Source: Candidatus Omnitrophota bacterium (GTDB lineage: Bacteria; Omnitrophota; Gorgyraeia; Gygaellales; Profunditerraquicolaceae). Taken from it: DNA of 64,000 nucleotides. Position numbers and translations under genes: made by a program. This document shows positions 15,897-40,966 of this stretch, in pieces (the first letter of the stretch is position 1; each line of letters opens with the position of its first letter). The stretch is taken from assembly GCA_043800555.1 (NCBI GenBank), contig JAZDMX010000003.1, forward strand, positions 97,947 through 161,946, written 5' to 3'. The notes under the pieces are model-generated. The model searched no databases. It saw nothing but the letters and a program-made list of their open reading frames with translations, and had not been told where the DNA came from.

Positions 15897-16473
15897 ATTA
15901 AGCAGATTTATACTGCTTTTGTTATGTAAACTTTTGTTCCGTATCCAATTCAAGGGGCGGGAGTTTATCCCTAAGAAAGGCGGATTCATTATAGCCAGCA
16001 ACCATTTTAGCTATCTGGATCCAATTGCAGTCGGCGTAGCCTGTACGCGCAGCATAAGTTTTATGGCCAAGGACGCGCTGTTTGATTATCCTTTTCTTTC
16101 CGGGTGGCTTAAGGCGGTTGGTGCCATATCCGTAAAACGGGGCTCGGCGGATTTATCCGCGATAAGAAAAGCGCTTAACAATGCAAAATCCGGAAAGGGC
16201 TTGGCATTATTCCCGGAAGGAACGCGCCGGACAAAAGAAACCGCATCTATCAACCCTGAACCGGGGGCCGGATTCCTGGCGGACAAGTTGAATGTGCCGG
16301 TTATCCCTGCGTTTGTCTCGGGAACAGAAATAGCTTTGCCAAAGGGAGCAAAGAGATTGCGCCTGGTAAAGTTAAAAGTAGTTTTTGGCAAGGAAATCCA
16401 TATAGAAAGGGGGAAGCCTTATCATGAAATTTCCGCAATGATAATGGCTAGCATAAATAATTTAGCAAGCTAA
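15886..16473 (+). CDS. plsC: 1-acyl-sn-glycerol-3-phosphate acyltransferase
   Basis: NHFSYLDP is the HX4D acyltransferase motif. FPEGTR motif also present. Confidence 0.8.
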   Translation: MPYRLSRFILLLLCKLLFRIQFKGREFIPKKGGFIIASNHFSYLDPIAVGVACTRSISFMAKDALFDYPFLSGWLKAVGAISVKRGSADLSAIRKALNNAKSGKGLALFPEGTRRTKETASINPEPGAGFLADKLNVPVIPAFVSGTEIALPKGAKRLRLVKLKVVFGKEIHIERGKPYHEISAMIMASINNLAS

Positions 16474-16577
16474 CAATAATAGGGGGGCGTAAATTTTTAC
16501 CGGTTGCTTGGAACAAAAATCAGCCCGTTACCCCTAGTCCCGTGGTTTAGAAAATAAACGATAAAGGAGAATTTAAA

Positions 16578-18119
16578 ATGTCAGATACAAGGGAAGAATT
16601 AGAGCAGCTCTATAATGAGAGCATTAAGATCATCAAGGAAGGGCACGTGGTAACGGGAAAAGTCGTTGCTATAAAGCAAAAGGAAGTTTTGGTGGATGTG
16701 GGTTTTAAATCCGAGGGGCTTGTCCCTATAACCGAATTCCCGAAGGCGGACTTGGAGGTAGGCAAGGAATTGGAGTTTTTCCTGGAGTCAATCGAGAATG
16801 ACGCCGGCAATATCGTTTTATCACGCGAAAAGGCAATCAGCATACAAGGTTGGGATAAGATCGTTAAGTTTTCCCATGAGGGGGCTCTTGTTGAAGGCAG
16901 GCCCGTCAAGAAGGTAAAAGGAGGATTCCTCGTTGACGTTATGGGGATCGAAGGGTTTTTGCCCCTATCATTGTCCGCTTTCAAGAATATCGCGGATAAG
17001 GACATACTTTATAAACCGTTCCAGTTTAAGATTGTTAAAGTCAATAATCTCAGGCGGAGCATAATTTTGAGCCGCAGGGAAGCGGTGCAAAAAGAAAGAA
17101 ACGTTGCCAAGGATAGAATCTGGCAGGAACTAAAGATTGGCAGCGTTGCTTCAGGCGTAGTCAAGGCCATTACGGATTTCGGAGCCTTCATTGATTTGGG
17201 CGGAGTGGACGGGCTTTTGCATATTACCGATATGTCCTGGTCAAAGATAAGCCATCCTTCGGAGGTAGTTGCTTTAGGGGATAAAATCGAAGTAGCAATC
17301 CTTAACCTGGACAGGGAATCCGGCAAGATTTCTTTAGGCTTAAAACAAAGAATGCCTGACCCGTGGGCTGATATTGTCAGTAAATTTACCGTTGGCTCAA
17401 AGGTAAAAGGAAAGGTTGTTAATATACTTCCTTATGGCGTATTTGTGGAATTGGAGAAAGGGATCGAGGGCCTGATTCACGTATCCGAGATTTCCTGGAC
17501 GAAAAGGATTAATAACCCGCAAGAAATGTTTGCTGTCGGGGATATACTTGAAACTCAGATTATCAGCGTTGATAAAGACTCGCGCAGGATCTCTCTTAGC
17601 CTGAAACAATTAGAGCAGAACCCGTGGCTGGAAGCTGATTCAAAATATGCCCAGGGCTCTACCGTTAGCGGAAAGGTTCGCGGGTTTACTGATTATGGCG
17701 CGTTCGTGGAGTTGGATAATAGCCTGGAAGGAATGATCCATGTTTCTGATATGTCCTGGACCAAAAGGATCGGGCATCCTCAGGATGTCTTAAAGAAGGG
17801 CCAGAAGGTCGATGTTCTGGTTATTTCTGTTGATAAGCAAAACAGGCGGATTGCTTTAGGGTTGAAGCAGCTTCAGGAGAATCCCTGGGGAAAAATTGCC
17901 GAAAAGTATCCTTTAGATACGGTTTTGGAAGCGGAAGTGGTCAATCTTACCGATTTTGGCGTTTTTGTAAAATTGGAAGATGATCTGGAAGGATTGATTT
18001 ATTCCAGCGAGATTGATAAAGATAGCGTATCTAAACTGAACCCCGGCGACAAAATCCAGGTCAAGGTGATTAAAGTGGATGTGGAGCAGGCCAAGATTGG
18101 CTTAACGGCCCGCGTATAG
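16578..18119 (+). CDS. rpsA: 30S ribosomal protein S1
   Basis: Multiple tandem S1 domains (repeated G..V.G.V..I.DFGAFV.L...GL.H.S). 513 aa. Confidence 0.9.
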
Positions 18120-18145: not shown

Positions 18146-19321
18146 ATGGAAAATATGGACATCGATGAGCAACTAAAAATAATTAAGCGGGGTGTATCCG
18201 AAATAATTTCCGAAGAGGAGTTAAGAAAGAAACTCGCGGAAAGTAGCAAGGCCAAGCGCCCGCTTAAGGTTAAGGCCGGTTTTGACCCAACCGCCCCGGA
18301 TCTGCATTTAGGCCACACCGTGCTCTTAAGAAAGCTTAGGCAGTTCCAGGAGCTGGGCCATGAAGTGTATTTTCTTATAGGAGATTTTACCGGGCAGATT
18401 GGAGACCCTACCGGCAGGTCGGAGGCTAGGAAGCAGCTTTCCCGGCAAGAGGCGGCCAGGAACGCCGAAACTTACAAAAAACAGGTGGCCAAGATACTTG
18501 ACCTTAATAAATTAAAAATTGTTTTTAACAGTAAGTGGTTTGACAAGATGACGGCTTCCGGCATCCTTGAGCTTGCTACTCATGCCTCGGTTTCCCAGAT
18601 GTTGGCCCGCGAGGATTTCAAGAAGCGTTTTTCTAGCGGCGAAAATATATCAATCCTGGAGTTTTTGTACCCTTTGATGCAGGGTTATGATTCGGTCATC
18701 CTGGAGGCAGACTTGGAACTGGGAGGCACAGACCAGATATTCAATCTTTTGTTCGGCAGGCAGCTCCAAAAAAACTTTAATCAGCCGCAACAGGTTGTCA
18801 TGACTATGCCGCTTTTGGAAGGGACCGACGGCACCCAGAAGATGAGCAAGTCTTATGCCAATTACATCGGGATTAACGAGCCGCCAAAAGAGATGTTTGG
18901 CAAGGTTATGTCTATTTCCGACGAGCTTATGTTTAAATATTACGAATTACTGACTGATGAAAATCTGGATAATGTCAGGAAAATGCATCCTAAAGAAGCC
19001 AAAGTAAATTTAGCCAAGATTATAATCTCCCAGTACCATTCAAATAATGCCGGGGAAAAAGAGGCTGCGGAATTTGAGCGGGTTTTCTCCCAAAAAGAAA
19101 TCCCTCAAGATATGCCTGAATTTCGGCTTGATGCCGGCAAGAATATAATCCATATACTTACCGAAAGCAAGCTGGCCGCGAGCGGGAACGAGGCCCGCAG
19201 GCTTATCAAACAAGGCGCGGTAACTTTTGATAACCAAAGAATAGAAAAGGAAGATTTCATCCTTAAGGCCGGGGGTATCCTTAAGGCCGGCCCCCGCAGG
19301 TTCTTGAGGATTACTATTTAG
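18146..19321 (+). CDS. tyrS: Tyrosyl-tRNA synthetase
   Basis: Class I HIGH (PDLHLGH) and KMSKS (QKMSKS) motifs. C-terminal S4-like domain. The true start may be the second Met (MDIDEQ). Confidence 0.9.
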
Positions 19322-19497: not shown

Positions 19498-19767
19498 ATG
19501 TTTAGCGTTATAATCGGTTTAATCGCCGCCACATTGACTATGTTTTCTTTTATCCCCCAGATAGCCAGGTCTCTGCGGACTAAGTCTGTCAAGGATGTCA
19601 GCCCGGTTACGTTATTTCAGCTTTCTGCGGGAGTTTTTCTTTGGATAGTATACGGCATCCTGCGCCGGGATCCGGTAATTATCCTGGCCAATGCAGTAAC
19701 CATCGTAAGTTTGTCGGCGCTTATATTCTTATATTTTAGGTTTGGCAAAGGCATGTCCGGCAGATAG
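19498..19767 (+). CDS. SemiSWEET / PQ-loop family sugar transporter (3-TM)
   Basis: 89 aa with three predicted TMs. A PQ motif in TM1 (FSFIPQIARSLRTKS). Size and topology are typical of bacterial SemiSWEETs. Confidence 0.65.
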   Translation: MFSVIIGLIAATLTMFSFIPQIARSLRTKSVKDVSPVTLFQLSAGVFLWIVYGILRRDPVIILANAVTIVSLSALIFLYFRFGKGMSGR

Positions 19768-19778
19768 GACTGTTCCTA

Positions 19779-20663
19779 ATGGAGGGCCCCGGAATGAAAG
19801 GAATTATCCTGGCAGGCGGAAAAGGCAGGCGGCTTTATCCCATCACTAAAGGCGTTTGCAAGCAGATGCTTCCTATTTACGATAAACCGATGATTTATTA
19901 CCCGCTTTCGGTTTTGATGCTGGCCGGAATAAGGGATATCCTGGTTATTTCTACTCCTAAAGATTTGCCCCGTTTTAAGGACCTGTTGGGAGATGGCGTA
20001 AGCCTGGGGGTTAAACTTTCTTATGCGTCGCAAGAGGCCCCTAAAGGCATTGCCCAAAGTTTTATCATCGCCGAAAGATTCATCGGAGATTCCAGCGTTT
20101 GCCTTATCCTCGGGGACAATGTTTTTTACGGTTACAATCTAAGCGAGCTTTTGCAGCAGGCAATTAAGATCAAGGATGGCGCGCTTGTTTTTGGTTATTA
20201 TGTCAAAGACCCCTGCCGTTATGGCGTAATTGAGTTTAACGGTAATTGCAAGGTAGCTTCGATCATAGAAAAGCCAAAGCGCCCTAAATCCAATTGGGTT
20301 GTTTCCGGGCTGTATTTTTATGATAACAAAGTAGTTGAAATCGCCAAGAAGCTTAAGCCTTCCAGCCGCGGAGAACTGGAGATTACCTCGGTCAATAATG
20401 CATACATCAAACGAGGCAAGCTAAAGGTCAAATTTCTCGGCCGGGGCCACGCCTGGCTGGATACGGGTACCTATGATTCTTTGATTGACGCTTCCATGTT
20501 TATCAAGGCGATCGAAGAGAGGCAGGGGCTAAAAATCGGCTGTATCGAAGAAGTCAGCTATCGGATGGGTTATATAAACAAGAAACAGTTATCGGCGCTG
20601 GCCTTAGAGATGCCTAACAGCTACGGAGAATATTTAAAGGATTTGTTAAGAAGAGCCAGGTAG
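19779..20663 (+). CDS. rfbA: Glucose-1-phosphate thymidylyltransferase
   Basis: MKGIILAGGKGRRLYPITKGVCKQMLPIYDKPMIYYPLS is the canonical RmlA N-terminus. 294 aa. Confidence 0.9.
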   Translation: MEGPGMKGIILAGGKGRRLYPITKGVCKQMLPIYDKPMIYYPLSVLMLAGIRDILVISTPKDLPRFKDLLGDGVSLGVKLSYASQEAPKGIAQSFIIAERFIGDSSVCLILGDNVFYGYNLSELLQQAIKIKDGALVFGYYVKDPCRYGVIEFNGNCKVASIIEKPKRPKSNWVVSGLYFYDNKVVEIAKKLKPSSRGELEITSVNNAYIKRGKLKVKFLGRGHAWLDTGTYDSLIDASMFIKAIEERQGLKIGCIEEVSYRMGYINKKQLSALALEMPNSYGEYLKDLLRRAR

Positions 20664-20735
20664 CCGCCTATCCCCACAGCCAAAACGCCATTCTCGCAGG
20701 AGGCGCTGCCAAAAGGGAGAATATCTTACCCGGAA

Positions 20736-21557
20736 ATGAATAAAAAAATCCTAATTTTAGGCAAAGGCTTTATCGGCCAAAGGCTGCAAAAGGATTTCGG
20801 TTGCGCCATTTGCAAGGAGTTTATCCGGAGCCTTAAGGACGCCCAGAGGATAATCAAAAAATATAACCCCGGGATCATCATTAATTGCATAGGCTCTACC
20901 GGAAAAAATAACGTGGATGGCTGTGAATCCGCCAAGGACGCTACTTTGCTGGCTAACAGCTTTGTCCCCGTTATCCTTGCGGAAGCCTCCTTGCGCAGCA
21001 ATATAAAGTTGGTCCATATCAGCAGCGGGTGTATTTTTAAGTTTAACTATGCCTTGGATAAGCCGGTATCAGAAGATAAATCGCCGGATTTTTTCGGCCT
21101 ATTTTATAGCCGTTCCAAGATCTATTCCGATTTAGCTTTAGCCGAACTTAGCAAAAAATACGATATTTTGATCTGCCGCATCCGCATCCCCTTATTGAAC
21201 CAGCCGCATCCGAAGAATATCCTGGATAAATTGATTAAATACAGGAAGGTAATAACTTTGAGGAATTCCGTGACCTATATCCCTGATTTTTCCAGGGCGC
21301 TTACGCATTTGATCAAAATTGGCGCAAGAGGGATTTATAACGTGGTGAATAAGGGCGGATTGAGTTACCCCGAACTTATGGATATTTATACGAAATACGT
21401 GCCGGATTTTAAGTATAAAACAATCGATTTCCGCAAGCTTGGGCTGGTGCGCACGAATTTACTGATCTCCGCGCGCAAGCTTGAGAAAACGGGTTTTAAG
21501 GTGCGGCCGATTGATTCGGTCCTCGAAGAATGCGTAAGAGAATACCTAAAATATTAA
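20736..21557 (+). CDS. dTDP-4-dehydrorhamnose reductase-like SDR (RmlD family, divergent)
   Basis: Rossmann N-terminus ILILGKGFIGQRL. ~270 aa. A YSRSK (YxxxK) motif. ISSGCIF aligns with RmlD ISTDYVF. It sits between rmlA and rmlB. Confidence 0.5.
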   Translation: MNKKILILGKGFIGQRLQKDFGCAICKEFIRSLKDAQRIIKKYNPGIIINCIGSTGKNNVDGCESAKDATLLANSFVPVILAEASLRSNIKLVHISSGCIFKFNYALDKPVSEDKSPDFFGLFYSRSKIYSDLALAELSKKYDILICRIRIPLLNQPHPKNILDKLIKYRKVITLRNSVTYIPDFSRALTHLIKIGARGIYNVVNKGGLSYPELMDIYTKYVPDFKYKTIDFRKLGLVRTNLLISARKLEKTGFKVRPIDSVLEECVREYLKY

Positions 21558-22549
21558 TTACCGGAGGCGCGGGGTTTATCGGCAGCGCCTTTACGCGGTT
21601 ACTTATAAGGGGCGGTTCTCTGGCTACCGGCCGTAAGAATAGCGCATTTCCCGTAGTAGTTGATAACCTCACTTATGCCGGAGACCTCCAGCGGCTTAAA
21701 GAGGTAGAAGGAAGGTTTAAATTCTACAAAGCGGATATCTGCGATAAAAATGCGGTTAGTGCTATTTTTTCTAGAGGGAGGCCGGATATCGTAGTGCATT
21801 TAGCCGCAGAGAGCCACGTTGACCGCAGCATTAAAGACGCCTCCATTTTTATTGATACTAATATTAAAGGAACGCAAGTTTTGGTTGACGCCAGCCGCAA
21901 ATACTGCGTAAAAAGATTTATCTTTATCTCTACCGACGAAGTTTACGGAGAAATAGCCGATGGCAGGTTTAATGAAAGCTCTCCTATCCGGCCGAACAGC
22001 CCTTATGCGGCTTCTAAGGCATCAGCAGACCTGTTGGTCCAGGCTTATATCCGGACCTATAAATTCCCCGCGGTAATTATCCGGCCGTCAAATAGTTATG
22101 GGCCATGGCAATACCCGGAGAAGTTAATTCCGCTGGCTATCTTGAGGGTATTGGGCGGCGCTAAGGTCCCGGTTTACGGAAAAGGCAAGAACGTGCGCCA
22201 GTGGCTCTATGTTGACGATTGCGCGCGGGGTATCCTGGCGGTAATGAATAAGGGTGAAATCGCAAAGGCCTATAACTTAGGGGGAGCTTGCGAAAGCAGG
22301 AATATCGATACGGTAAAAATGCTGTTAAAGGCCCTTGGCGTCAGCCCGCAGAGGCTTGAATTTGTTAGTGACCGCCCAGGCCATGACATAAGATATAGCC
22401 TTGACTCCAGAAGAATCTCCGGTGAAACCGGCTGGAGGCCGGATGTTGATTTTACCCAAGGCCTTAAGCTTACCGTAGATTGGTCGCTAAGGCATCGAAG
22501 CTGGCTTGAGAGTAAATTAAAGGACATAAACAAGCTGTATAATAAATAA
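21530..22549 (+). CDS. rfbB: dTDP-glucose 4,6-dehydratase
   Basis: [14 protein letters not shown] glycine motif and the STDEVYG and YAASKASAD catalytic motifs. 339 aa. Confidence 0.9.
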
Positions 22550-22559
22550 GGAGTTTTTC

Positions 22560-23621
22560 ATGCCTGTTGTTTTGGTCAGCGGTTCCTGCGGTTTAATTGG
22601 TTCCGAGACAGCCGGGTTTTTTGCCCAAAAAGGGTTTGATGTCGTTGGCATCGACAATAATATGCGTAAAACTTTTTTTGGCGAAGACGGCTCCATCCTT
22701 TGGAATAAAGAGCGCCTGCGGAAGAAATACAAAAACTACGCGCATTATTCCGTAGATATCCGCGACGAAAATAAAATAAACAGGATCTTTAGGCGGTTCG
22801 GCCCGCAGATCGCTTTAATCGTCCATACGGCGGCCCAGCCGTCGCATGACTGGGCGGCGAAAGACCCGTTGGTTGATTTTGGCGTCAATGCCGACGGCAC
22901 GCTGGTAATGCTGGAGGCAATGCGTAAGTTGGCGCCGGAAGCAGTTTTTATTTTTACCTCGACCAATAAAGTTTACGGCGATACCCCTAACCGCCTGCCG
23001 TTAATTGAGAAAGAAAAACGCTTTGAGATTTCCCCGGAACATAAATATTACCGGGGTATTGATGAGGGTATGAGTATTGACGGATGCCTGCATTCGGTTT
23101 TCGGCGCCTCAAAAGTCGCCGCAGACATAATGACGCAGGAATACGGCAGGTATTTTAATCTGCGCACAGCGGTGTTTCGCGGCGGATGTCTCACCGGCCC
23201 GGCGCATTCAGCAGCGGAATTGCACGGGTTTTTATCCTACCTGGTCAAATGCGCCGTGACAAGACGCAAATATAAGATTTATGGCTACAAAGGCAAGCAG
23301 GTCAGGGATAACATACATTCTTTTGACCTGGTAAACGCGTTTTATCATTATTTCCAGGCCCCCCGGTGCGGCGAAGTTTATAACATAGGCGGAGGCAGGT
23401 TCGCAAATGTTTCTATCCTGGAAGCGATTGAATTTTGCGAGGCGCTGACAGGGGAAAAATTCGAATATGAATATATCGATACTAACCGTATCGGCGACCA
23501 TATCTGGTGGGTCAGCGATGTCTCCAAGTTTAAATCGCATTATCCCGGCTGGCAGTATAAATTCGGCATAGAAGATACGATGAAGCAAATTTACCTGGCC
23601 CAGAAAGGGTTGTCGCAATAG
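22560..23621 (+). CDS. Extended-SDR epimerase/dehydratase, CDP-paratose 2-epimerase-like, with the catalytic Tyr position occupied by Phe
   Basis: [14 protein letters not shown] Rossmann motif and a TSTNKVYGD motif. The expected YxxxK reads [12 protein letters not shown], i.e. F where Tyr is expected. Confidence 0.6.
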
Positions 23622-23748: not shown

Positions 23749-24792
23749 ATGAGATATAATAATATTCTAATTACCGGAGGCGCCGGTTTCATCGGCAGTA
23801 ACCTGGCGGTCTATTTCAAGCGTGAATACCCGCGGATGAAAGTGTTTGCTTTGGATAACCTGGCGCGCCGGGGAAGCGAATTTAACCTGCCGCGCCTTAA
23901 GGAAAACGGCATTAAATTCATCCTTGGGGATGTCCGTTACCCTAAAGACATGCGCCTAGGATTCGACATAGACCTGCTACTGGACTGTTCCGCCGAACCG
24001 TCGGTTTTGGCGGGTTATGATAACCCTTCCTATATCATTGATGCCAACCTGATGGGCACTGTTAATTGCCTGGAGTTTTGCCGCAAGCGAAAAGCGGGGA
24101 TGATTTTTCTTTCCACCAGCAGGGTTTATCCCTATGAGGAAATAAACGCGATCAGGCGCCGGGAAACAAAAAGCAGGTTTGAGTGGGATAACCCTGGCGG
24201 TATTGATACGGATTTTTCCCTGGCCGGCCCAAAGACCTTATACGGGGCGACTAAACTGGCCGGCGAGTTTATCCTTCAGGAGTATGCCGCCGCATACGGC
24301 ATCAAGGCGGTTGTGGACCGCTGCGGAGTAGTCGCCGGGCCATGGCAGTTCGGCAAGGTTGACCAGGGCGTTTTTACTTATTGGATGCTGGCGCACTATT
24401 TCAAGAAACCGCTTAAATATATCGGTTTTGGAGGCCAGGGTAAGCAGGTGCGCGACCTCTTGCATATTGATGACCTTTGCCGGTTAATCGGCCTGCAGGC
24501 AAACAGCCTTGGCGAATTAAGCGGGAATACTTATAATGTCGGCGGTTCAAGAGAAATAAGCCTCTCTTTATTGGAAACTACAGCGTTTTGCCGGCAGATT
24601 TCCGGCAATAAGGTAAGAGTAGGCCGGAATCTGCGCAACCGGCCGGGAGATATCGCGGTTTATCTTACTAATAACGAAAAAGTTACCCGTGACTTTAAAT
24701 GGAAGCCGCGCAAGGCATCCGCAACTATCCTGAATGATATTTTTGGCTGGATCAGGAATAATGAGGCAAAGCTAAAGAAGCTATGCGGTTAA
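23749..24792 (+). CDS. Extended-SDR epimerase/dehydratase (CDP-paratose 2-epimerase-like paralog)
   Basis: [25 protein letters not shown], and an intact YxxxK (TLYGATKLAGE). Confidence 0.65.
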   Translation: MRYNNILITGGAGFIGSNLAVYFKREYPRMKVFALDNLARRGSEFNLPRLKENGIKFILGDVRYPKDMRLGFDIDLLLDCSAEPSVLAGYDNPSYIIDANLMGTVNCLEFCRKRKAGMIFLSTSRVYPYEEINAIRRRETKSRFEWDNPGGIDTDFSLAGPKTLYGATKLAGEFILQEYAAAYGIKAVVDRCGVVAGPWQFGKVDQGVFTYWMLAHYFKKPLKYIGFGGQGKQVRDLLHIDDLCRLIGLQANSLGELSGNTYNVGGSREISLSLLETTAFCRQISGNKVRVGRNLRNRPGDIAVYLTNNEKVTRDFKWKPRKASATILNDIFGWIRNNEAKLKKLCG

Positions 24793-24798
24793 ATTAGC

Positions 24799-25539
24799 AT
24801 GGTTATTCAAGATACCCTGCGTAAACGTTTTATCTGCGCCGAAACCGATTCCCTGGTTATAGAAACAATCCAAACTGAATCCAAAACCCTGCGTCAGCGC
24901 CTAAGAATGCTTAAGCTTAAAGGGGCTTGGCGCGCTAATAGCCGGAATGAGCTTTGTTTTGATGTTGCCCTGCGCAAAGGCCGGCCGCAAACCTATACCT
25001 TTAAAGGGGCTTGGAAGCTGGATGATAACCAGCAGATTGAATATAGCAGCGGCCAAGGCCCGGATGTATTAACCTTAAAAGGGCACTGGGATATATCTTC
25101 GGCTAACCGGCTTGTTTATATTTTAGAAGGCAGTTCAACCTCGCGTTTTGAATTCAAGGCCCAGCTTGAGTCGCCTGTAATTTATCCTAAGGCAGGCCAG
25201 ATCCGCTACCGTATCGGCATAGGTAGCCGTAAAAGCCGGCTGACTGGCGGGCAGCTGCTTATTTTCTATGGTGAATGGAAATTTGGCCGTAATTTAGGGT
25301 TGGTTTTCCAGATGGATTATGGCCAGGGACGGGTTAAAGCCATTCTCTTTGGGGCAGAGTTAACCTTTGGCCGTAATAAGGTTATTTTTGCGCTTAAGAG
25401 CGAACTTGGCGAACCTTTAGGGATGGCCCTTACCATGACACATAAATACTTGGAACATCTTGATACTAAAGCTTTTATAAGATTAAAATCCCGCAGCAAA
25501 GAACAGGCAGTAGAAGCCGGCATAACTATCCCCTTTTAA
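24799..25539 (+). CDS. Hypothetical protein with four to five ~30-aa internal repeats (KG-x-W class)
   Basis: Repeats LKGAWRANSRNELCFDVAL, FKGAWKLDDNQQIEYSSGQ, LKGHWDISSANRLVYILEG, FYGEWKFGRNLGLVFQMDY, FGAELTFGRNKVIFALKS. No signal peptide. No recognisable catalytic motif. Confidence 0.45.
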   Translation: MVIQDTLRKRFICAETDSLVIETIQTESKTLRQRLRMLKLKGAWRANSRNELCFDVALRKGRPQTYTFKGAWKLDDNQQIEYSSGQGPDVLTLKGHWDISSANRLVYILEGSSTSRFEFKAQLESPVIYPKAGQIRYRIGIGSRKSRLTGGQLLIFYGEWKFGRNLGLVFQMDYGQGRVKAILFGAELTFGRNKVIFALKSELGEPLGMALTMTHKYLEHLDTKAFIRLKSRSKEQAVEAGITIPF

Positions 25540-25655: not shown

Positions 25656-26390
25656 GTGTTAAAACAATACGGCTGGCTGCCTGACATCCCGGATAAACGC
25701 GATTTACTCTACAGTTCTATTAAGCCCCGCATTAAGCTTCTTCCTAAAGTTGATTTGCGTAAAAACTGTCCACAAATAGAGCGCCAGGGAAACCTTGGCA
25801 GCTGCACTGCTTGTGCCCTGGCCGGAAACATTGAATACCTGGATAACCTTTTGGATTTTATTTATACTGACGTTAGCCGGCTTTTTATCTATTATAACGA
25901 AAGGGCCCTGGAGGGAACGCAAGATTATGACGCCGGAGCGTCTTTGCGCGACGGCATAAAGTCCCTGAGGAAAACCGGTTATTGCTGGGAGGCATCCTGG
26001 CCTTATAAAATCGTTTTTTTTAGCCGGAAACCCCCGGTTCGCTGCTATAGAGAAGCCAGGCAGCATTGTATCCAATCCTACCATCGTATCAATAATTTAA
26101 GGGAAATGCTGGTTTGTTTGAGCCAGGGGTATCCTTTTGTTTTTGGTTTTACCGTTTATGAGAGCTTTGAGGGCCCGGCTGTAAAACGCACGGGTATCGC
26201 GAATATGCCTGAAAAAGGAGAGCGTGTTTTAGGCGGCCACGCCGTAATGGCAGTTGGTTATAACCAAAAAGAAAAGAGGTTCCTTGTCCGTAATTCCTGG
26301 GGTAAGCAATGGGGTAAGGGAGGGTATTTTACCCTGCCTTTTGAATACCTGGAAACCCTGGCCGCGGATTTCTGGACAATAAGGAAGTAG
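25656..26390 (+). CDS. Papain-like (C1 family) cysteine peptidase lacking a signal peptide and pro-region
   Basis: QGNLGSCTACALAG matches the Q...GSCWAF catalytic Cys context. GGHAVMAVGY supplies the His and VRNSWGKQWGKGGYF the Asn. 244 aa, and the N-terminus starts directly at the mature-domain equivalent. Confidence 0.7.
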   Translation: MLKQYGWLPDIPDKRDLLYSSIKPRIKLLPKVDLRKNCPQIERQGNLGSCTACALAGNIEYLDNLLDFIYTDVSRLFIYYNERALEGTQDYDAGASLRDGIKSLRKTGYCWEASWPYKIVFFSRKPPVRCYREARQHCIQSYHRINNLREMLVCLSQGYPFVFGFTVYESFEGPAVKRTGIANMPEKGERVLGGHAVMAVGYNQKEKRFLVRNSWGKQWGKGGYFTLPFEYLETLAADFWTIRK

Positions 26391-26399
26391 AGGGATAAG

Positions 26400-27440
26400 A
26401 TGAAAAAGGCGTTAATTACCGGAGCTACCGGCCAAGACGGTTCGTACCTGGTGGAGTTACTCTTATCTAAAGGATACGAAGTCCATGGCATTATCCGCCG
26501 GGCAAGCACTTTTAATACCGGCAGGCTCAACCATATCTATACCGATCCGCACGAGCCTAAGGCCAAATTGTTCCTGCACTACGGCGATATTTCCGATGCC
26601 GAGCAAATCAACAATATTATTTTCAATATTAAACCTGACGAAGTGTACCATTTAGCCGCGCAAAGCCATGTGCGGGTAAGTTTCGATATTCCCGAATACA
26701 CCGGCAATATCACTGCTTTAGGCGCCACGCGTATCCTGGAATCGATCCGCCGGAGCGATAGGAAGATTAAACTCTACCAGGCCTCCAGCAGCGAGATGCT
26801 GGGGGCAGCGCATCCTCCGCAGTCGGAGGCTACGCCTTTTCAGCCGCAAAGCCCCTATGCCTGCGCCAAGGTTTACGCGTATTGGATGGTTAAAAACTAC
26901 CGTGAAGGCTACGGTTTATTTGCCTGCAACGGCATACTTTTTAACCATGAGTCGCCCAGGAGAGGGGAGACATTTGTTACCCGTAAAGTTACCCGCGCTC
27001 TCGCCGGTATCTTAGCCGGCAAGCAAAAGAAACTTTACCTGGGTAACCTTGAAGCAAAGCGCGACTGGGGCTTTGCCCCGGAGTATGTCGAAGGCATGTG
27101 GAAAATCCTCCAGCAGGAAAAACCGGATGATTTTGTTTTAGGCACGGGCCAGTCGCATGCGGTGAAGGAATTTGTCCAAGCGGCATTTGCTTACGCGGGA
27201 TTAAACTGGAAGAAATACGTATTGATTGACAAGAGGTATTTCCGCCCGACAGAAGTAAATGTGCTTAAGGCCGACCCATCCAAAGCCAAAAAGGCCTTAG
27301 GCTGGAAACCCAAAGTTACCTTCGATGATTTAGCCAAGATTATGGTTGATGCCGATATGCGCCAGATCGGCCTTAAGCCTATCGGCGAAGGCGATAAGAT
27401 TTTAAAACTAAAATTCACCAACAGGTGGTGGAAGGTCGAC

Positions 27441-27443
<3 letters not shown>
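26400..27443 (+). CDS. gmd: GDP-mannose 4,6-dehydratase
   Basis: [46 protein letters not shown] is the canonical Gmd N-terminus. YACAK YxxxK motif. Confidence 0.9.
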
Positions 27444-28463
<1,020 letters not shown>

Positions 28464-28464
28464 T

Positions 28465-29679
28465 ATGAGTAACCTTAGCAGGAAAAAGAAATCCGATAAT
28501 CTAAACGCTAAAGGCTGGAGGTTTGCAGGCAACGAAAGGCGGTATTTGGATGAGGTTTTATCTAACGGCTTTACCGCCGGAGGAACCGGGACAATGACCG
28601 AACGTTTAGAAAACGGTTTTGCCGCTCTCCACAAAAAGAAATACGCCATTGGCGCAAATTCCGGGACTTCTACTTTACATATGGCGTTAAAGGCTTTTGG
28701 GGTAGGCCCCGGAGATGAAGTCATCGTCCCCGGGCTTACGGTGGCTATGTGCGGGTTTGCAATCTGGCAGTGCCAGGCAACCCCGGTTTTTACGGATGTG
28801 CGCGAAGATACCTTCCTGCTTGATCCTGCGGATATAGAAAAAAAGATAAGCAAAAAGACAAAACCGATTATGCCAGTGCATCTTTATGGCTTAATGTGCG
28901 ATATGGGGGCTATCCTCAAAATTGCCAAGAAGCACGATTTATATATTGTTGAAGACTGCGCTCAATGCTACCTGGCCGAAGATGGCGCGGGCAGGATAGC
29001 CGGCACCGCAGGAGATGTCGGTAGCTGGAGTTTTGAGAATTCAAAACATATATCTACGGGAGACGGGGGGATAGTGCTTACGGATAATGAGCGCCTGGCA
29101 GAGTATATGAGGCAATTCGGAGGCGTAGGCTTTAAGAATATTACCGCAACTAGCGGTAAGGTAAGAATTGATAGGGATAAATTTCAAGATCCGTCCTGGC
29201 TACGGCATAGCATACCGGCTTATAACTACAGGCTTCCTGAATTATGCGCAGCTGTTGCCTTGGCCCAGTTAGAGCGGGTAAAATTATTTTGTAAGCTCAG
29301 GATAACCATGGGATTGGGTTATCTTGAAGTCATCCGCAGGACAAAAACCAGGCTCCTGGTTCCCCAAAAGACCCCGCGGGGATATACGCATTCGTATTTT
29401 ACGTTTGCCGCCCTTTTCAGGGGAGGCGAGTGCGGGATAGGCTGGCAGGAATTCAGGAAAAAGCATATCGAAAACGGGGGAGACGGCATTTACGCCGCCT
29501 GGCAGACATTGAATAATGAGCCTTGTTTCAAGAACAATAATATCGGCTATGGGAGGATCCCTGTCGCGGAAAAGCTCCAGCAAAATCTTATGCAATTTAC
29601 CACTAACCAGCATGACGGGACGCAACGCAATAAGCAGTTCCAGGCTTTAGAGAAAACAATAAAATATTTTAGTAAGTAG
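28465..29679 (+). CDS. DegT/DnrJ/EryC1/StrS-family PLP-dependent sugar aminotransferase/dehydratase-like protein (divergent)
   Basis: Fold-type I region with DEVIVPGLT, IVEDCAQC and SFENSKHISTGDGGIV, a variant of the SFxxxKxxxxGxGG PLP-Lys motif. Confidence 0.55.
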   Translation: MSNLSRKKKSDNLNAKGWRFAGNERRYLDEVLSNGFTAGGTGTMTERLENGFAALHKKKYAIGANSGTSTLHMALKAFGVGPGDEVIVPGLTVAMCGFAIWQCQATPVFTDVREDTFLLDPADIEKKISKKTKPIMPVHLYGLMCDMGAILKIAKKHDLYIVEDCAQCYLAEDGAGRIAGTAGDVGSWSFENSKHISTGDGGIVLTDNERLAEYMRQFGGVGFKNITATSGKVRIDRDKFQDPSWLRHSIPAYNYRLPELCAAVALAQLERVKLFCKLRITMGLGYLEVIRRTKTRLLVPQKTPRGYTHSYFTFAALFRGGECGIGWQEFRKKHIENGGDGIYAAWQTLNNEPCFKNNNIGYGRIPVAEKLQQNLMQFTTNQHDGTQRNKQFQALEKTIKYFSK

Positions 29680-29747
29680 CGTACCCGGCAGCCGTCTTCC
29701 CGGATGAGGCCATTGTTTAGGAATAAGTTATCTGGAGAATAAAAACG

Positions 29748-30608
29748 TTGGATAAACCGGTTAATAACGCGGAAAATATTTATGGGCCCCGGCAAGTCGT
29801 GGTCATTAAGCCCGGCAATCCCCCGGGGCAATACTGGGTAGATATCTGGCGCTACCGGGAATTATTCTATTTTCTTGCCTGGAGGGATATAATTGTCCGG
29901 TATAAGCAGACTATAATCGGAATCGCTTGGTCCTTGATACGCCCCTTCTTGACCTTGGTTGTTTTTACCGTTGTTTTTAGCAAGATCGCCAAGCTGCCGT
30001 CTTATGGCGCGCCTTATCCGGTATTGGTATTCGCCGGATTATTGCCGTGGCAGTTTTTTGCGAACGCCCTGTCCGAAAGCAGTAATTCGCTCATTGATAA
30101 TGAAAAATTGATTACAAAGGTATATTTCCCGCGTTTTATTGTCCCTTCCAGCACGGTTATAGTGAGCATCGTGGATTTCCTGCTTAATTTATTGATCCTT
30201 ATCGCAATAATGGCATGGTATCGCTTTGCCCCCGGCCCCAGGATAATGATCTTGCCGCTATTCTTTTTGTTCGCTGTTATTGTCGCTATGGGCGCCGGGC
30301 TATGGATGGCCACTTTGAATGTGAAATACCGCGATTTTCGCTATATAGTCCCTTTTGTAATACAATTCGGGCTTTATATTTCACCTGTCGGTTTTAGCAG
30401 CGCCGTTGTCCCGCAGAATTGGAGGTTATTGTATTCGTTAAACCCTATGGTCGGGGTAATTGATGGGTTCCGTTGGGCGATAATTGGCGGAGAGTCGCAT
30501 TTTTACTGGCCGGGATTTATTATCTCCATAATCCTGGCTTTAGTGATCTTTATATCGGGCTTATTTTATTTTCGTAAGGCAGAGAAAAAATTTGCGGATG
30601 TGATTTAG
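29748..30608 (+). CDS. wzm: ABC-2 type polysaccharide/O-antigen export permease (Wzm)
   Basis: Six TMs and the characteristic [19 protein letters not shown]-terminus of Wzm/KpsM-type permeases. Confidence 0.8.
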
Positions 30609-30615
30609 AGGGCTT

Positions 30616-31908
30616 ATGAATCCGGCTGTTAAAGTAGAAAATCTCGGTAAGAAATATATCATTCGCCACAATAAAGAGGCCCGTTATACGGCCTTACGCG
30701 ATGTAATAACTGATAAAGTCCGGGATATTTTTAGTTTGAATAAGCCGAAGATAAGATCCGGATTAGCCGTAGAACAGCAAGAGAGTTTTTGGGCTTTAAA
30801 AGATATTTCTTTTGAGGTTAACCCCGGAGAGAGGCTTGGAATAATCGGCAGGAATGGAGCCGGCAAGTCAACCCTGCTGAAGCTTTTGAGCAGAATTACC
30901 GAACCTACCACCGGCAGAGCGGTTATCAGGGGGCGCATAGCCAGTTTACTTGAGGTCGGGACGGGTTTTCATCCGGAATTAACCGGCAGGGAGAATATAT
31001 TCTTAAACGGCGCTGTCTTGGGTATGCCTAGGGCGCAAATAAAGGACAAATTCGATGCAATGGTGGCATTTGCGGAAGTGGAAAAATTCCTCGATACTCC
31101 GGTTAAGCGTTATTCTTCGGGGATGTATGTGCGTTTGGCTTTTGCGGTAGCTGCGCATCTTGATCCGGACATATTGGTTGTTGACGAGGTTTTGGCTGTG
31201 GGCGATGCTCAATTCCAGAAGAAATGCCTGGGGAAGATGGAAGAGGTTTCAACTCAAGAGGGAAGGACCGTGCTGTTTGTCAGCCATAACATGGGTGCTA
31301 TAGGGCAGTTATGCCAGAAGTCCATTCTTTTAGAAAACGGCAGTTTAGCCTCAACCGGAGAAACCGGCGTTGTTATCCAGCGTTATCTGGAGGGTAAAAG
31401 TTCTGGAATACTGGGAGAGAGATCGGGAATAAGCTTTAAAGAAGAAATCGGCAAGGAGCTCCAGATATCTTCCATCAAAGTAACCGATAACAAAGGAGAC
31501 ACTTTTGTAGAGCTAGATAGGATGCGTCCTTTTAGAATTGCTATAGAATATAGCGTGCGTAAATATACTGAAGTGGCCAGCGTAGATTTTGTTTTAGAAA
31601 CCTTGACCGGGGTATATATATGCCAATGTTCCGATCTTGATTTGGCCCTGGGCAAAATAATTAAGCGTGAGCCTGGATGTTATCTTGCTTATGTGGAATT
31701 CCCCGGTTACATGTTTAACGCCGGTTCATACCAGGTCCGGGCCTGGATATTGGCTGGCCAGCATGAGGTTTATGACTCTCCGGCAAAAGGCGTTATCTTC
31801 CATCTTTATGACAGCGGGACATTTGCAGCTACTTCTTCAGGAATGGGAGGGCAGCGTAACGGCATATTGGCGATGCCGGTTCAATGGAATACCAGCAGAA
31901 TAAAATGA
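30616..31908 (+). CDS. wzt: ABC transporter ATP-binding protein Wzt with a C-terminal glycan-binding domain
   Basis: Walker [13 protein letters not shown], signature [12 protein letters not shown], Walker B ILVVDE. A ~180-aa C-terminal extension typical of Wzt O-antigen terminal-residue recognition domains. Confidence 0.85.
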
Positions 31909-32408
31909 AAAAACTCAAACTATTAAAACAAGGCATAGATTTAATTGTTTATGACTTTGACGGAGTAATGACGGACAATAAAGCCTTCTTCTTTGAAGAC
32001 GCAAGAGAGGCTGTCCTGGTGAACAGGTCCGATGGCCTAGCGGTTAGCATAATTAAAAAGTCAGGTATCCCCCAGATTATTATCTCTACCGAGCCCAATA
32101 AAGTAGTGCAGGCGCGGGCAAGAAAGCTCAAGATTCCTTGCCTCTACAATATAAGCGATAAGAAAGCCGCACTAATTATGTACTGCAGAAAGATGCAGTT
32201 CGATATTAAGAAAACTATTTATATCGGTAACGATATCAATGATTTTGAGGCGATGAAAATCGCCGGTATCCCCATGGCCCCTCTGGATGCTTCCGTAGAA
32301 ATAAGGAGGATGGCTAGAGTTATCATAAATGTCCGCGGAGGCGACGGGGTCATCCGGGGTTTATTAAACTTATTAAACTTAGAAAGGGCTAAAGAAGATG
32401 ACAAGTGA
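31884..32408 (+). CDS. HAD-superfamily phosphatase, KdsC-like (ulosonate/nonulosonate-phosphate phosphatase)
   Basis: [19 protein letters not shown] is HAD motif I in KdsC family context. YIGNDINDF is motif IV. 174 aa. Confidence 0.7.
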
Positions 32409-33270
32409 GAATATTAATAAGCAAAATAACCGGATTTTCATAATAGCGGAATTGGGGATAAATCATAATGGCGATCTAAGCATTGCCAGGGAATTGATTA
32501 AAGTGGCAAAGGACGCCGGGTGTGACGCGGTTAAGTTCCAGAAGCGCTCGGTAGAACTTGTTTATTCAAAAGAGCTCCTTGATTCCCCGCGCCAGAGCCC
32601 CTGGGGAAATACTCAGAGGGCGCAAAAGGAAGGCCTGGAGTTAAGCTTGGAGGAATACCGGCAAATAGACCGTTATTGCAAAGAATTAGGCATCGAATGG
32701 TTCGCTTCGGCTTGGGATCTAGGGAGCTTAAGGTTCTTAAGGCAATTTAACCTGAAATATAATAAAGTTGCTTCGGCGTTATTGACCTACGATGCTTTCC
32801 TGAAAGAGGTGGCCGCGGAGAGAAAGTATACATTTATTTCTACGGGCATGAGCAACCTTGAACATATCGACCACGCCGTGGACATATTCAGGAAACAGGG
32901 TTGTCCTTTTGAATTGATGCATTGTATTTCGGTTTATCCTATGGATGACGAAGACGCTAATTTAAGCTGTATTAAGACGCTAAGAGAACGCTATAAATGT
33001 AACGTGGGATATAGCGGCCATGAAGTAGGGCTGGCTATTTCTTATGCCGCTGTGGCCTTTGGGATAAGTTCGCTTGAACGGCATATAACATTAGACCGGG
33101 CTATGTACGGTTCGGATCAGGCGGCCTCTCTTGAGCCGCCGGCTCTAAGAATGTTGGTTGGCGCCGTAAGGAAGATTGACAAGGCCATTGGAGACGGGGT
33201 AATTTCGATCCTGGAAAAGGAAGTGCCGATCAGCAAGAAGCTAAGGGCGCATTTCCTTAATTCTATCTAG
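32398..33270 (+). CDS. NeuB-family (N-acetylneuraminate/nonulosonate synthase) TIM-barrel protein lacking the C-terminal SAF domain
   Basis: IIAELGINHNGDLSIARELIKVAKDAGCDAVKFQK is the NeuB N-terminal signature. The ORF ends at 290 aa, with no antifreeze-like/SAF domain. Confidence 0.8.
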   Translation: MTSENINKQNNRIFIIAELGINHNGDLSIARELIKVAKDAGCDAVKFQKRSVELVYSKELLDSPRQSPWGNTQRAQKEGLELSLEEYRQIDRYCKELGIEWFASAWDLGSLRFLRQFNLKYNKVASALLTYDAFLKEVAAERKYTFISTGMSNLEHIDHAVDIFRKQGCPFELMHCISVYPMDDEDANLSCIKTLRERYKCNVGYSGHEVGLAISYAAVAFGISSLERHITLDRAMYGSDQAASLEPPALRMLVGAVRKIDKAIGDGVISILEKEVPISKKLRAHFLNSI

Positions 33271-33291
33271 GATTGGCCAGGACGTTAGCCT

Positions 33292-34044
33292 ATGAAAAAT
33301 AAAAAAGGATTAATTCCCGCTTTCATTACTGTAAGGTCTGCTTCATCAAGGCTTCCCTCAAAATGCCTTTTGCCATTTGGCGATGGAAATGTCTTGGAAC
33401 ATGTCATCCGCAGGGTTAAGTTTTTTGGATTGGAAGCGGTTGTCTGCACAACATCTGAACCCGGCGATGATATTATTGCGCAGATAGCCCGGAGAGAGCG
33501 GGTAGAGTGCTTCAGGGGCAGCTCCGAGGATAAGCTAAGGCGTTGGCTTGATTGTTGCGATAGCTTAGGGTTCGATAAATTCCATACTATAGACGCGGAC
33601 GACCCTTTTTTTGACCCCATTCTGGTAAAAAAAAGTTTCTCGCTGCTTAATAGGGGTTATGATCTGGTTTACCCGACCAAGAGTTCTTCTCTGGGAGCTG
33701 CAAGCGTGGGTTTCTCGTTAACCAGGGGCATAGTTTTCTTAGCGTGTGAAATTAAGAAAACCAAAAAGACGGAGATGGCCTGGGTATTCCTTGAGAGAGT
33801 TCCTGGGATAAGGGCTAAGAGGCTTGAGGAAGAATGCCCCGGAAAACCCAAATCCCGGCTTACCTTAGATTATGAAGAAGATTACTGGTTGCTTCGGACA
33901 GTCCAGCGTTTATTAGGGAATAACGCCTCCCGTAGGCGGGTTGACGATCTCTTTGCAAGAAATCCGGATCTCTATAAGGTCAACTGGTTTCGTAATAGCC
34001 AATGGAAAAAGAGGCAGGCTTTTTTAAGCAGGGTTAGGAAATAG
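33292..34044 (+). CDS. Acylneuraminate cytidylyltransferase-family protein (CMP-nonulosonate/ulosonate synthetase-like)
   Basis: LIPAFITVRSASSRLPSKCLLPFGDGNVLEHVIRR is the CMP-sugar synthetase N-terminal motif (compare PseF/SpsF/NeuA). Confidence 0.7.
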   Translation: MKNKKGLIPAFITVRSASSRLPSKCLLPFGDGNVLEHVIRRVKFFGLEAVVCTTSEPGDDIIAQIARRERVECFRGSSEDKLRRWLDCCDSLGFDKFHTIDADDPFFDPILVKKSFSLLNRGYDLVYPTKSSSLGAASVGFSLTRGIVFLACEIKKTKKTEMAWVFLERVPGIRAKRLEEECPGKPKSRLTLDYEEDYWLLRTVQRLLGNNASRRRVDDLFARNPDLYKVNWFRNSQWKKRQAFLSRVRK

Positions 34045-34048
34045 AAGG

Positions 34049-34870
34049 ATGATGAAAAAGCATAGTTTTGGAATAGTCCAGGGCCGTTTGACTCCTTCGC
34101 CCCGGGGCCGCTTACAGTGCTTCCCCCGGGATAATTGGCGGAAGGAATTTAGAGACGCATCTTTACTCGGGTATAATTTTATTGAGATGATAGCCGACAG
34201 GAGGTTTAACCCTAAGAATCCTCTTTGGAGTAGTCCCGGGCTCAAGAAGATAAAGGATGCGTGCTTGCGGCATAATCTTCAGGCGTATTCGGTCTGCAAT
34301 GATTTCATCATTAGCCACTCTCTTGTTAACGAGCCTAATGCCGAAGAGCAGACAATGAGGCTTATCGGCCGATCCGCTCTTCTGGGGATGAAAGTTTTGA
34401 TACTCCCGCTATTTGAGAGGAGCCAGATAAATATTCTAAATTACAGAAGGTTCTTGATTCCTTTAAGAAGGATTGCCGATGCTTCAGCCAGCAAGAAGAT
34501 CGTTATTTGCCTTGAAACAAACCTTGGGGCAGGGGAAATCCTTAGGATTTCGAAGTTTTTTAATCATTCCAACATTAAATATGTATTTGATTCCGGAAAC
34601 AGGGTTGTCCTTAAAGAAGATATCTACTCGGATATAAAGATCCTTAAGGGGTTGATAGGGCATATTCATATTAAAGACAAGGACCAGGCGGGGGATAATG
34701 TCCTGCTTGGAACGGGAAAAGTAAATTTTCTAAAGCTCTTCCGGTCTTTAGCGTTGATTGATTATACCGGCCCGTATGTCTTTGAGACTACAAGAGGGCG
34801 CGATCCTTTAAATACCGCCCGCTATCATAAAACATTGGTAGAGTTTTTCTTAAATGAGGCTTCAAAATGA
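34049..34870 (+). CDS. Sugar phosphate isomerase/epimerase (xylose-isomerase-like TIM barrel) family protein
   Basis: ~270 aa with an alternating beta/alpha pattern and a metal-ligand-like HIHIKD. Sits inside the nonulosonate module. Confidence 0.45.
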   Translation: MMKKHSFGIVQGRLTPSPRGRLQCFPRDNWRKEFRDASLLGYNFIEMIADRRFNPKNPLWSSPGLKKIKDACLRHNLQAYSVCNDFIISHSLVNEPNAEEQTMRLIGRSALLGMKVLILPLFERSQINILNYRRFLIPLRRIADASASKKIVICLETNLGAGEILRISKFFNHSNIKYVFDSGNRVVLKEDIYSDIKILKGLIGHIHIKDKDQAGDNVLLGTGKVNFLKLFRSLALIDYTGPYVFETTRGRDPLNTARYHKTLVEFFLNEASK

Positions 34871-36746: not shown

Positions 36747-36761
36747 CGCGGAGTAATTAAA

Positions 36762-38153: not shown

Positions 38154-38180
38154 TTACCGGGGGGGTAATCTTCATCTAAA

Positions 38181-39386: not shown

Positions 39387-39410
39387 TTTATTAAAAGAAA
39401 GAGGAAAGCA

Positions 39411-40385: not shown

Positions 40386-40966
40386 TGAATAGGCAGGCGC
40401 TCCCTAATAATGCGTCGGATAGACCGAAAATATTATGCCCTGATCTGGTCCCGGTGAAAGAACAATACCGCAACAAGTGGTTTAAGGTATTGGAGCGCGG
40501 CGGGATCTTTACATTTGAATATGACCGGCCTCAAGTTGTGGTCTTGCCTATCGTGGACAAGAAGAGTATCGTCATGGTAAGGGTAAGGAGGCCGCTTATG
40601 GATGATTCCCCTTTAGAATTGCCGGCTGGGGATTCGCTGGAGCAGGAGACGCCCGCGGAAGCGGCAAGCCGGGAATTTTCCGAAGAAACAGGGATATGCG
40701 TCAATTCATTGGAAAGATTCAAGCCTGCAACCGCGATCTCTGAAATGCCGGGGAGGATGCCGGTCTTATTGAGCGTTTTTTATATAGAACTGGGTATGGA
40801 TGAATTTCTAAAGAGAAGGGCTTTTGATAAAAAAGAAATCATCTCCGTAGAACTGCTTTCAATAGGCGCAGTTATAAATAAGATCATTACCGGAGAAATA
40901 TATTTGAGCTCTCCTATCGCAATTTTATCGAGATTTATTTTCTCCAACTTGGATGGGATTAAATAA
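40364..40966 (+). CDS. NUDIX hydrolase (nucleotide-sugar pyrophosphatase-like)
   Basis: Nudix box LELPAGDSLEQETPAEAASREFSEETGI (Gx5Ex7REuxEExGu). Confidence 0.7.
   Translation: MEVPEIMMNRQALPNNASDRPKILCPDLVPVKEQYRNKWFKVLERGGIFTFEYDRPQVVVLPIVDKKSIVMVRVRRPLMDDSPLELPAGDSLEQETPAEAASREFSEETGICVNSLERFKPATAISEMPGRMPVLLSVFYIELGMDEFLKRRAFDKKEIISVELLSIGAVINKIITGEIYLSSPIAILSRFIFSNLDGIK

Follow-up and report, generated by a model that had tools for sequence, protein, structure and literature searches.

The closest functional analogues of the protein described here are the OstA-like β-jellyrolls (LptA, LptC and the N-terminal domain of LptD) and the β-taco proteins of the AsmA/TamB type, which handle glycolipids and lipids of the cell envelope; LptA assembles head-to-tail. 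The closest in architecture are the MORN, YD/Rhs and cell-wall/choline-binding repeats, which act by binding and not by catalysis. Here, we analyze a 246-residue β-hairpin-repeat protein (hereafter the repeat protein) encoded within a 64,000-nucleotide stretch, the window, of contig JAZDMX010000003.1 from Candidatus Omnitrophota bacterium (assembly GCA_043800555.1). Omnitrophota is a widespread uncultured phylum of very small, possibly host-dependent cells, and we know of essentially no study of its cell envelope. We propose, with a probability of roughly 40%, that the repeat protein, which is basic, stays in the cytoplasm, has no enzymatic activity and serves the assembly of envelope glycolipids as a binding or scaffold protein.

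Like the OstA-like and AsmA-type proteins, the repeat protein is predicted to string antiparallel strands one after another so that one face is hydrophobic, and its paralogues are encoded beside LpxL-LptC-LptB and AsmA-like genes. However, those proteins are periplasmic and carry a signal peptide or membrane anchor, whereas the repeat protein has neither; the likeness is a functional analogy only. Pfam gives no match to OstA or LptC even below threshold, and neither is among the 50 Foldseek PDB matches listed. With the hairpin-repeat families it shares short hairpins (20–30 residues), conserved glycine and aromatic residues, an Asx/Gly turn and a variable number of units, but its consensus is distinct, its double units recur every ~60 residues and its central signature is unique. 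RHS_repeat reaches a sub-threshold match in only two of 129 family members (best E = 0.042), while MORN and CW_binding lie outside the 25 Pfam families most often matched by these 129 relatives.

By motif, the closest domains are lipocalin-like (Lipocalin_4, DUF5640, DUF5004 and the NlpE N-terminal domain) and DUF7840, which share a G-x-W at the start of a strand. Lipocalins, however, have one G-x-W per eight-stranded barrel and the repeat protein has one per hairpin; all of these matches fall under the gathering scores (DUF7840 recurs in 18 of the 129 relatives, Lipocalin_4 and DUF5640 in seven each and DUF5004 in six), and Foldseek returned no significant lipocalin match. The staphostatins and chagasin-type inhibitors are small, all-β, cytoplasmic proteins encoded beside a cysteine peptidase, a combination that the repeat protein would share; it is nevertheless about twice their size, repetitive, free of a neighboring peptidase in most genomes and without a sequence or fold match to them. 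For bacterial gasdermins, PADLOC gives no match to the repeat protein, and the adjacent peptidase is not obligatory (15 of 38 loci). Compared with outer-membrane proteins, it ends in a C-terminal aromatic β-signal and lacks an N-terminal Sec signal peptide. We place it in none of these families, because the tests of membership that were run came out negative.

Internal repeats

The best off-diagonal Smith–Waterman self-score of the repeat protein is 52, compared with 29.5 ± 5.9 in shuffled sequences, none of which reached this value (0 of 100). The family profile compared with itself gives an off-diagonal match of residues 6–123 to residues 67–188 (96% probability, E = 1.3e-9) and another of residues 117–194 to residues 1–78 (92% probability, E = 6.7e-7). 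All four tryptophans of the protein lie in G-x-W motifs, which occurred in 10 of 200,000 shuffles. The internal periodicity read from the sequence in a first-pass annotation of the window is thus significant by both shuffled self-alignment and profile self-comparison.

The self-alignments define about seven homologous hairpin units, equivalent to about 3.5 double units of ~58–61 residues. The first-pass annotation had counted four to five units. This holds for the recognizable ones, and the five that it quoted are all present (residues 41–58, 68–86, 93–111, 156–174 and 184–201); the total is higher because units 0, 4 and 6 (residues 6–32, 114–148 and 177–203) are degenerate. G-x-W is kept in four units, and Gly95 and Trp97 of unit 3 are invariant or nearly so throughout the family. 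The consensus hairpin of the family spans ~30 residues and reads h-x-F-x-G-x-W-x-h-(D/N)-x-x-N-x-L-x-Y. The gene and its parts are as follows; the window holds no second copy.

24799..25539, + strand: gene of the repeat protein (246-residue β-hairpin-repeat protein); maximal open reading frame (ORF) in its frame, with no upstream extension possible
24814..24894, + strand: unit 0, residues 6–32, degenerate hairpin RKRFICAETDSLVIETIQT, aligned to units 2 and 4 by self-comparison
24901..24978, + strand: unit 1, residues 35–60, hairpin with G42-x-W44 and turn residue N50 (self-comparison, model)
24985..25056, + strand: unit 2, residues 63–86, hairpin with G70-x-W72 (self-comparison, model)
25060..25137, + strand: unit 3, residues 88–113, hairpin with G95-x-W97 (self-comparison, family conservation)
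25138..25242, + strand: unit 4, residues 114–148, family signature followed by a low-confidence basic loop (conservation, model)
25249..25326, + strand: unit 5, residues 151–176, hairpin with G158-x-W160 (self-comparison, model, conservation)
25327..25407, + strand: unit 6, residues 177–203, hairpin FGAELTFGRNKVIFALKS without tryptophan (self-comparison, model)
25408..25536, + strand: C-terminal strands and one short helix, the last strand amphipathic (...VEAGITIPF) (model, alignment)

The product is 100% identical to P0001, a hypothetical protein of a Candidatus Omnitrophota metagenome-assembled genome (MAG) at NCBI.

Predicted structure

AlphaFold2 with 129 diverse relatives gives an all-β model with a predicted local distance difference test score (pLDDT) of 88.5 and a predicted template modeling score (pTM) of 0.83, which bears out the β-rich repeat protein proposed in the first reading of the sequence. 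The run supersedes one with 32 close homologues, for which the pLDDT was only 39.8. The model consists of ~17–20 consecutive antiparallel strands, a short helix at residues 215–220 and a weak loop at residues 141–150. Foldseek searches of the PDB and BFVD returned no match at E ≤ 1e-3; the best PDB matches are mostly β-propellers, including a fish-egg lectin, with E ≥ 0.028, probability ≤ 0.28 and TM-score ≤ 0.18, and the picture from BFVD is the same. Sequence-profile searches of the PDB with the family alignments likewise gave chance-level matches only (strands of the ZnuD barrel, E = 0.15; the S-layer protein MA0829, E = 0.042; YoeB). No structural relative of the protein is detectable in these searches.

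The number of G-x-W hairpins per protein is most often four in forms of 230–265 residues and five in longer forms, which gain their further units at the N-terminal end. This variation favors an open, extendable repeat architecture over a propeller that closes on itself. The idea of the first-pass annotation, a propeller-like or lectin-like fold (with β-trefoils among the lectins to be compared), thus finds no backing in either the Foldseek results or the repeat number. Contacts from mean-field direct-coupling analysis (283–290 sequences, Meff ~150–170) were dominated by artifacts at indel edges and termini and were discarded.

Conservation and sequence properties

In an alignment of 398 sequences (Neff ~160), conservation of at least 75% is confined to G, W, F, Y, L, I and N residues together with S115, K161, D47, R51 and E171; the last three are family consensus residues at which the window protein differs. 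The most distinctive family motif is S115-x-F-x-F-[RK]-x-x-h-[QE]-[TS]...G133-x-I-[KR]-Y-[RQ]-h-G140. Judged from the alignment, the conserved residues are structural (G, W, F, Y and N), with the addition of a basic/hydroxyl motif in the center. The 398 sequences share no conserved Cys or His and no other conserved catalytic-type residue, which argues against catalysis and agrees with the earlier remark that the protein has no catalytic motif. Very probably, then, the repeat protein is not an enzyme, and a binding role would suit it better.

The protein is hydrophilic and basic (isoelectric point, pI, 9.9; relatives 8.8–10.5), and its strands, as read from the sequence, are amphipathic. Signal peptides and hydrophobic N-termini are lacking both in it and in ~400 relatives; the first reading had noted the lack of a signal peptide for the window protein, and a cytoplasmic location is predicted. 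The last residue is Phe or Trp in ~97% of 382 relatives, and the strand that precedes it is amphipathic. A PilZ-like reading (RxxxR...DxSxxG) was dropped, as R32 is not conserved among close homologues and R36 is not conserved family-wide.

Family and taxonomic spread

A collection clustered at 90% identity contains 276 close homologues; the best 120 of the 276 are 68–82% identical to the repeat protein, 237–262 residues long and all unnamed. A profile search of 1.84 billion representatives retrieved 399 clusters (50% identity) at E ≤ 1e-3, of which 162 were at E ≤ 1e-30. Most of the 399 are long forms of 325–345 residues, whose ~90 additional N-terminal residues are further repeats. A third subfamily of ~285 residues surfaced with a divergent member as the query. 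Wherever a close homologue or a sampled long form has a named source, it is an Omnitrophota MAG; two ~285-residue members carry other, unverified MAG labels (Thermodesulfobacteriota and Eisenbacteria).

As the first-pass annotation had stated, the protein has no known domain: Pfam and NCBIfam give no match above cut-off, and the Pfam cut-offs are reached by none of the 129 diverse relatives. PADLOC and PHROGs gave no match, searches of plasmids, phage genomes and the viral contigs of IMG/VR yielded no homologue, and literature searches on Omnitrophota lipopolysaccharide (LPS), rhamnose and outer membrane and on DUF7840 returned nothing about the family. It is an undescribed, Omnitrophota-centered family of the general kind of all-β repeat proteins with a putative binding function.

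Genomic context

We compared 40 loci from GTDB species representatives and several metagenomic ones by tblastn and ORF clustering. The counts given here for loci refer to 38 other non-redundant Omnitrophota loci, of which 20 have at least 4 kb on each side (full-flank loci); single loci carry L numbers. In the window, the neighbors of the repeat protein gene that concern its synteny are as follows, SDR denoting the short-chain dehydrogenase/reductase family.

16578-18119: rpsA, start of the conserved upstream block
18146-19321: tyrS, conserved upstream block
19498..22549, + strand: SemiSWEET-rmlA-rmlD-like-rmlB block (synteny)
22560..23621, + strand: SDR1, the commonest immediate upstream neighbor in other species
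23749..24792, + strand: SDR2, extended-SDR epimerase/dehydratase, stop codon 6 nt before the start of the repeat protein gene
25656..26390, + strand: C1a papain-like peptidase, cytoplasmic (Peptidase_C1, PF00112, E = 1.9e-13)
26400..31908, + strand: gmd, fcl, DegT-family aminotransferase, wzm and wzt, downstream glycan genes

The 38 loci keep the order rpsA-tyrS-SemiSWEET-rmlA-rmlD-like-rmlB-SDR1-(SDR2), then the repeat protein gene, and then variable exopolysaccharide (EPS) or O-antigen genes, such as those for a MarR_EPS regulator, Wzz-like proteins, gmd/fcl and wzm/wzt. The MarR_EPS regulator (TIGR04176, 95.3 bits, cut-off 88) is found in 10 of the 20 full-flank loci. SDR1 or SDR2 lies directly upstream in 16 of the 38 loci, the coding regions usually overlapping or nearly touching, and the remaining loci have insertions in this gap; the 6-nt gap noted earlier for the window is confirmed. 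The first-pass annotation had considered the gene unexpected in a sugar-nucleotide locus, a view that its synteny in 38 other loci and also in distant long-form lineages does not support. Averaged over the 14 species in which all of the genes compared occur, identity to the window protein is 70.5% for the repeat protein, compared with 68.1% for RmlB, 68.4% for RmlD, 74.7% for TyrS, 77.2% for RmlA and 78.6% for SDR1. Identity on a par with RmlB and RmlD indicates constraint at the level of housekeeping genes.

The long forms, 32–40% identical to the repeat protein, share this glycan-gene neighborhood. Their orders include tyrS-X-VanZ-manC-rmlA-rmlD-rmlB (L005), rpsA-tyrS-ugd-SDR-X-rmlA-rmlD-rmlB (L048), rpsA-tyrS-wzx-GT2-GT2-rSAM-X-MarR_EPS (L050; GT2, family 2 glycosyltransferase; rSAM, radical SAM) and, elsewhere, ugd-SDR-X-SemiSWEET-C1-MarR, where X is the family member. 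In L051, a 342-residue member (10001-11029) is located between kdsB-kdsA-kdsD-kdsC/queDCEF (Kdo/queuosine) and LpxL-LptC-LptB, and this is the clearest tie of the family to lipid A/LPS transport. Another member lies near an AsmA/YhdP-like gene, and the gene of a 280-residue member overlaps that of pyruvate kinase and is directly followed by an AsmA/YhdP-like gene. In 72 metagenomic loci of the 285-residue subfamily, two neighbors are the most frequent: an alpha/beta-hydrolase gene is upstream in 15 (and a PGAP1-like one in three more), and a secreted PLDc_2 protein is encoded downstream in 13. The same PLDc_2 type recurs some genes after the repeat protein gene in five short-form loci (L017, L022, L026, L032 and L002). 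It has ~480 residues, is secreted, carries a single HKD motif and a long C-terminal region without a Pfam match, and may be a lipid enzyme or a nuclease.

The rml block of the window (19779-22549) contains rmlA and rmlB along with an rmlD-like gene that is divergent (44.9 bits; TIGR01214 cut-off, 224). No rmlC (dTDP_sugar_isom) was found in the window between 12 and 42 kb or in the Pfam-annotated loci (L001–L006 and L048). Since the rmlD-like gene is divergent, the pathway may need no RmlC, and the product of the block may be a 6-deoxy-D-hexose instead of L-rhamnose. Farther downstream, the window has NeuB-like and cytidylyltransferase genes of the nonulosonic-acid type (32398-42438), B12-binding radical SAM genes (36762-38153 and 40966-42438) and a 401-residue ORF without a Pfam match (38181-39386).

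The gap between the SDR genes and the repeat protein gene is an insertion hotspot that receives AbiEi/AbiEii-like pairs, ORF6N, a RhuM-like gene and AAA_14/DUF4143 ATPases (inserts in L002, L008, L010, L015, L019, L023, L024, L026, L027, L029, L031, L036 and L038); the window itself has no insert between SDR2 and the repeat protein gene. A Y1 (REP-associated) transposase recurs farther upstream, between tyrS and SemiSWEET. L024 has a second copy of the gene (15799-16517), ~69% identical and split across three frames, which is a pseudogene or an assembly error, and MAG CAZQGT01 has two intact copies on separate contigs (L010 and L034). The MAGs of L010, L022, L028, L034, L042 and L046 are labeled 'uncultured Planctomycetales bacterium' despite an Omnitrophota-type locus and were probably mislabeled by the pipeline used for submission.

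Papain-like peptidase neighbor

The gene downstream of the repeat protein gene encodes, as first described, a cytoplasmic papain-like peptidase: it matches Peptidase_C1 (PF00112, 51.4 bits against a cut-off of 20.7), its Cys/His/Asn triad is readable in the motifs GSCTAC, GGHAV and RNSWG, and it lacks a signal peptide. Within the 116-nt gap between the two genes are a promoter-like element, TTGCTC-15-TATAAT, and a ribosome-binding site, GGAGG. In its C-terminal half, the peptidase resembles a family of phage peptidases, phrog_16701 (E = 1.1e-19).

In 15 of the 38 loci, and in seven of the 20 full-flank loci, a C1 peptidase is encoded no more than three genes away from the repeat protein gene; it is absent from 12 of these 20. 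When near, it may be on either side of the repeat protein gene but is always on the same strand. Two types occupy the position, a C1a orthologue of the window gene in four other species (66–84% identical) and a second type, c11 (~270 residues, ~31–34% identical to C1a), in twelve loci. The c11 type also occurs two genes after long-form members (L047 and L049), in the order X-SemiSWEET-C1-MarR_EPS, and is there 62–66% identical to short-form c11. The Cys/His/Asn triad is intact in both types, and neither type has a signal peptide or propeptide. The co-occurrence of the pair, which had been put forward as a check, is therefore recurrent but not obligatory, given the loci from which the peptidase is missing; the association is old, recurrent and optional.

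Discussion

Envelope lipid and glycolipid neighbors, combined with a basic, non-catalytic, amphipathic all-β repeat that is predicted to stay in the cytoplasm, make binding or scaffolding on the inner side of the membrane the best-supported role. The repeat protein would be made together with the sugar-nucleotide enzymes of the locus and would act at the cytoplasmic face of the inner membrane in the assembly of LPS O-antigen or EPS. The aromatic-rich face of the sheet and the conserved central basic/hydroxyl patch may hold an anionic ligand, the candidates being membrane lipids and glycans linked to a lipid or a nucleotide; alternatively, the protein may dock enzymes that handle such a ligand. 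Its presumably open-ended sheet, conserved edge strands and invariant aromatic C-terminus could allow head-to-tail pairing into oligomers.

Several points weigh against this proposal. The ligand, a groove to hold it and the open sheet edges are all hypothetical. Because Foldseek searches of the PDB and BFVD gave no structural neighbor, the likeness to lipid- and glycan-binding β-proteins is an analogy only. A mere flanking core gene would show the same synteny at the boundary between a conserved and a variable block, some neighbors, e.g. the PLD-like protein, could be nucleases instead of lipid enzymes, and the L054 paralogue is located amid translation and replication genes with no envelope theme.

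The last of these points also bears on an alternative that we consider unlikely, namely that the repeat protein is the product of a core gene unrelated to glycans, which binds nucleic acid or another anionic polymer and marks the border of the locus and its hotspot. Its pI of 9.9, the insertion hotspot just upstream and the abutment of the locus on rpsA-tyrS are consistent with such a role, but the envelope neighborhood survives rearrangement of the locus across lineages and paralogous subfamilies, and the gene is translationally close to an SDR sugar-nucleotide enzyme in many species. A partnership with the papain-like peptidase is doubtful to a similar degree. Either the peptidase would cleave and thereby activate the repeat protein, or the repeat protein would act in trans, as inhibitor or chaperone, on a peptidase that has no prodomain; staphostatin/staphopain and bacterial gasdermin/protease offer analogies. 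The recurrent, co-oriented C1 gene on either side, the two peptidase clades in the same position, c11 near long forms too, and the intact triad without propeptide all speak for it. Set against this, the peptidase is missing from 12 of the 20 full-flank loci while the repeat protein is always present and slowly evolving, the window peptidase seems to be served by a promoter and ribosome-binding site of its own, no peptidase is encoded next to members of the paralogous subfamilies, PADLOC matched no gasdermin model, and neither gasdermin nor staphostatin is among the Foldseek matches listed.

Three further readings concern the fold or the chemistry. It is quite improbable that the protein is a soluble, lectin-like closed β-propeller or β-trefoil that binds free or polymeric carbohydrate: aromatic/Gly repeats and the propellers among the top Foldseek PDB matches suggested it, but these matches are all non-significant, no such Pfam family appears even below threshold, the unit is a hairpin and not a four-stranded blade, its number varies by subfamily, and cytoplasmic lectins are unusual. 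We give slightly less credence to a hidden enzyme of the sugar-nucleotide pathway, e.g. a substitute for the missing RmlC 3,5-epimerase, as might be thought from the position close behind SDR genes in loci where rmlC was not found; the family conserves no catalytic-type residue, long-form orthologues and paralogues occur without rml genes, and RmlC is possibly not needed if the product is a 6-deoxy-D-hexose. An outer-membrane β-barrel (porin or exporter), exported without a classical signal peptide, is very improbable. It would account for the ~17 consecutive antiparallel strands of the model, the hydrophobic residues at positions -1, -3, -5, -7 and -9 from the C-terminus with the terminal Phe or Trp resembling the β-signal, the place in an LPS/EPS locus and the weak profile match to ZnuD. 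However, the ~400 relatives lack any signal peptide or hydrophobic N-terminus, no such barrel is among the Foldseek matches listed although the model is confident, the basic pI is atypical for bacterial outer-membrane proteins and the strand count differs between subfamilies.

A more specific form of the envelope-assembly proposal, which we regard as rather improbable, is that the family constitutes a new cytoplasmic class of open-ended β-repeat proteins whose ligands are membrane lipids or anionic lipid-linked glycans and which polymerize edge-to-edge and pass these ligands from the synthesis enzymes to exporters (Wzm/Wzt, Lpt or AsmA-like). If so, it would be an Omnitrophota-specific factor of envelope biogenesis, built on a fold without any solved relative and under optional control by the papain-like peptidase.

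In summary, the family is as conserved as the enzymes of the rhamnose pathway, heads a surface-polysaccharide locus and belongs to no curated family. A role of the repeat protein in envelope assembly would make it a component of LPS/EPS biogenesis specific to the phylum, probably with a new β-repeat fold. Otherwise, it would still be useful as a family-level marker and as a clear target for structural genomics.

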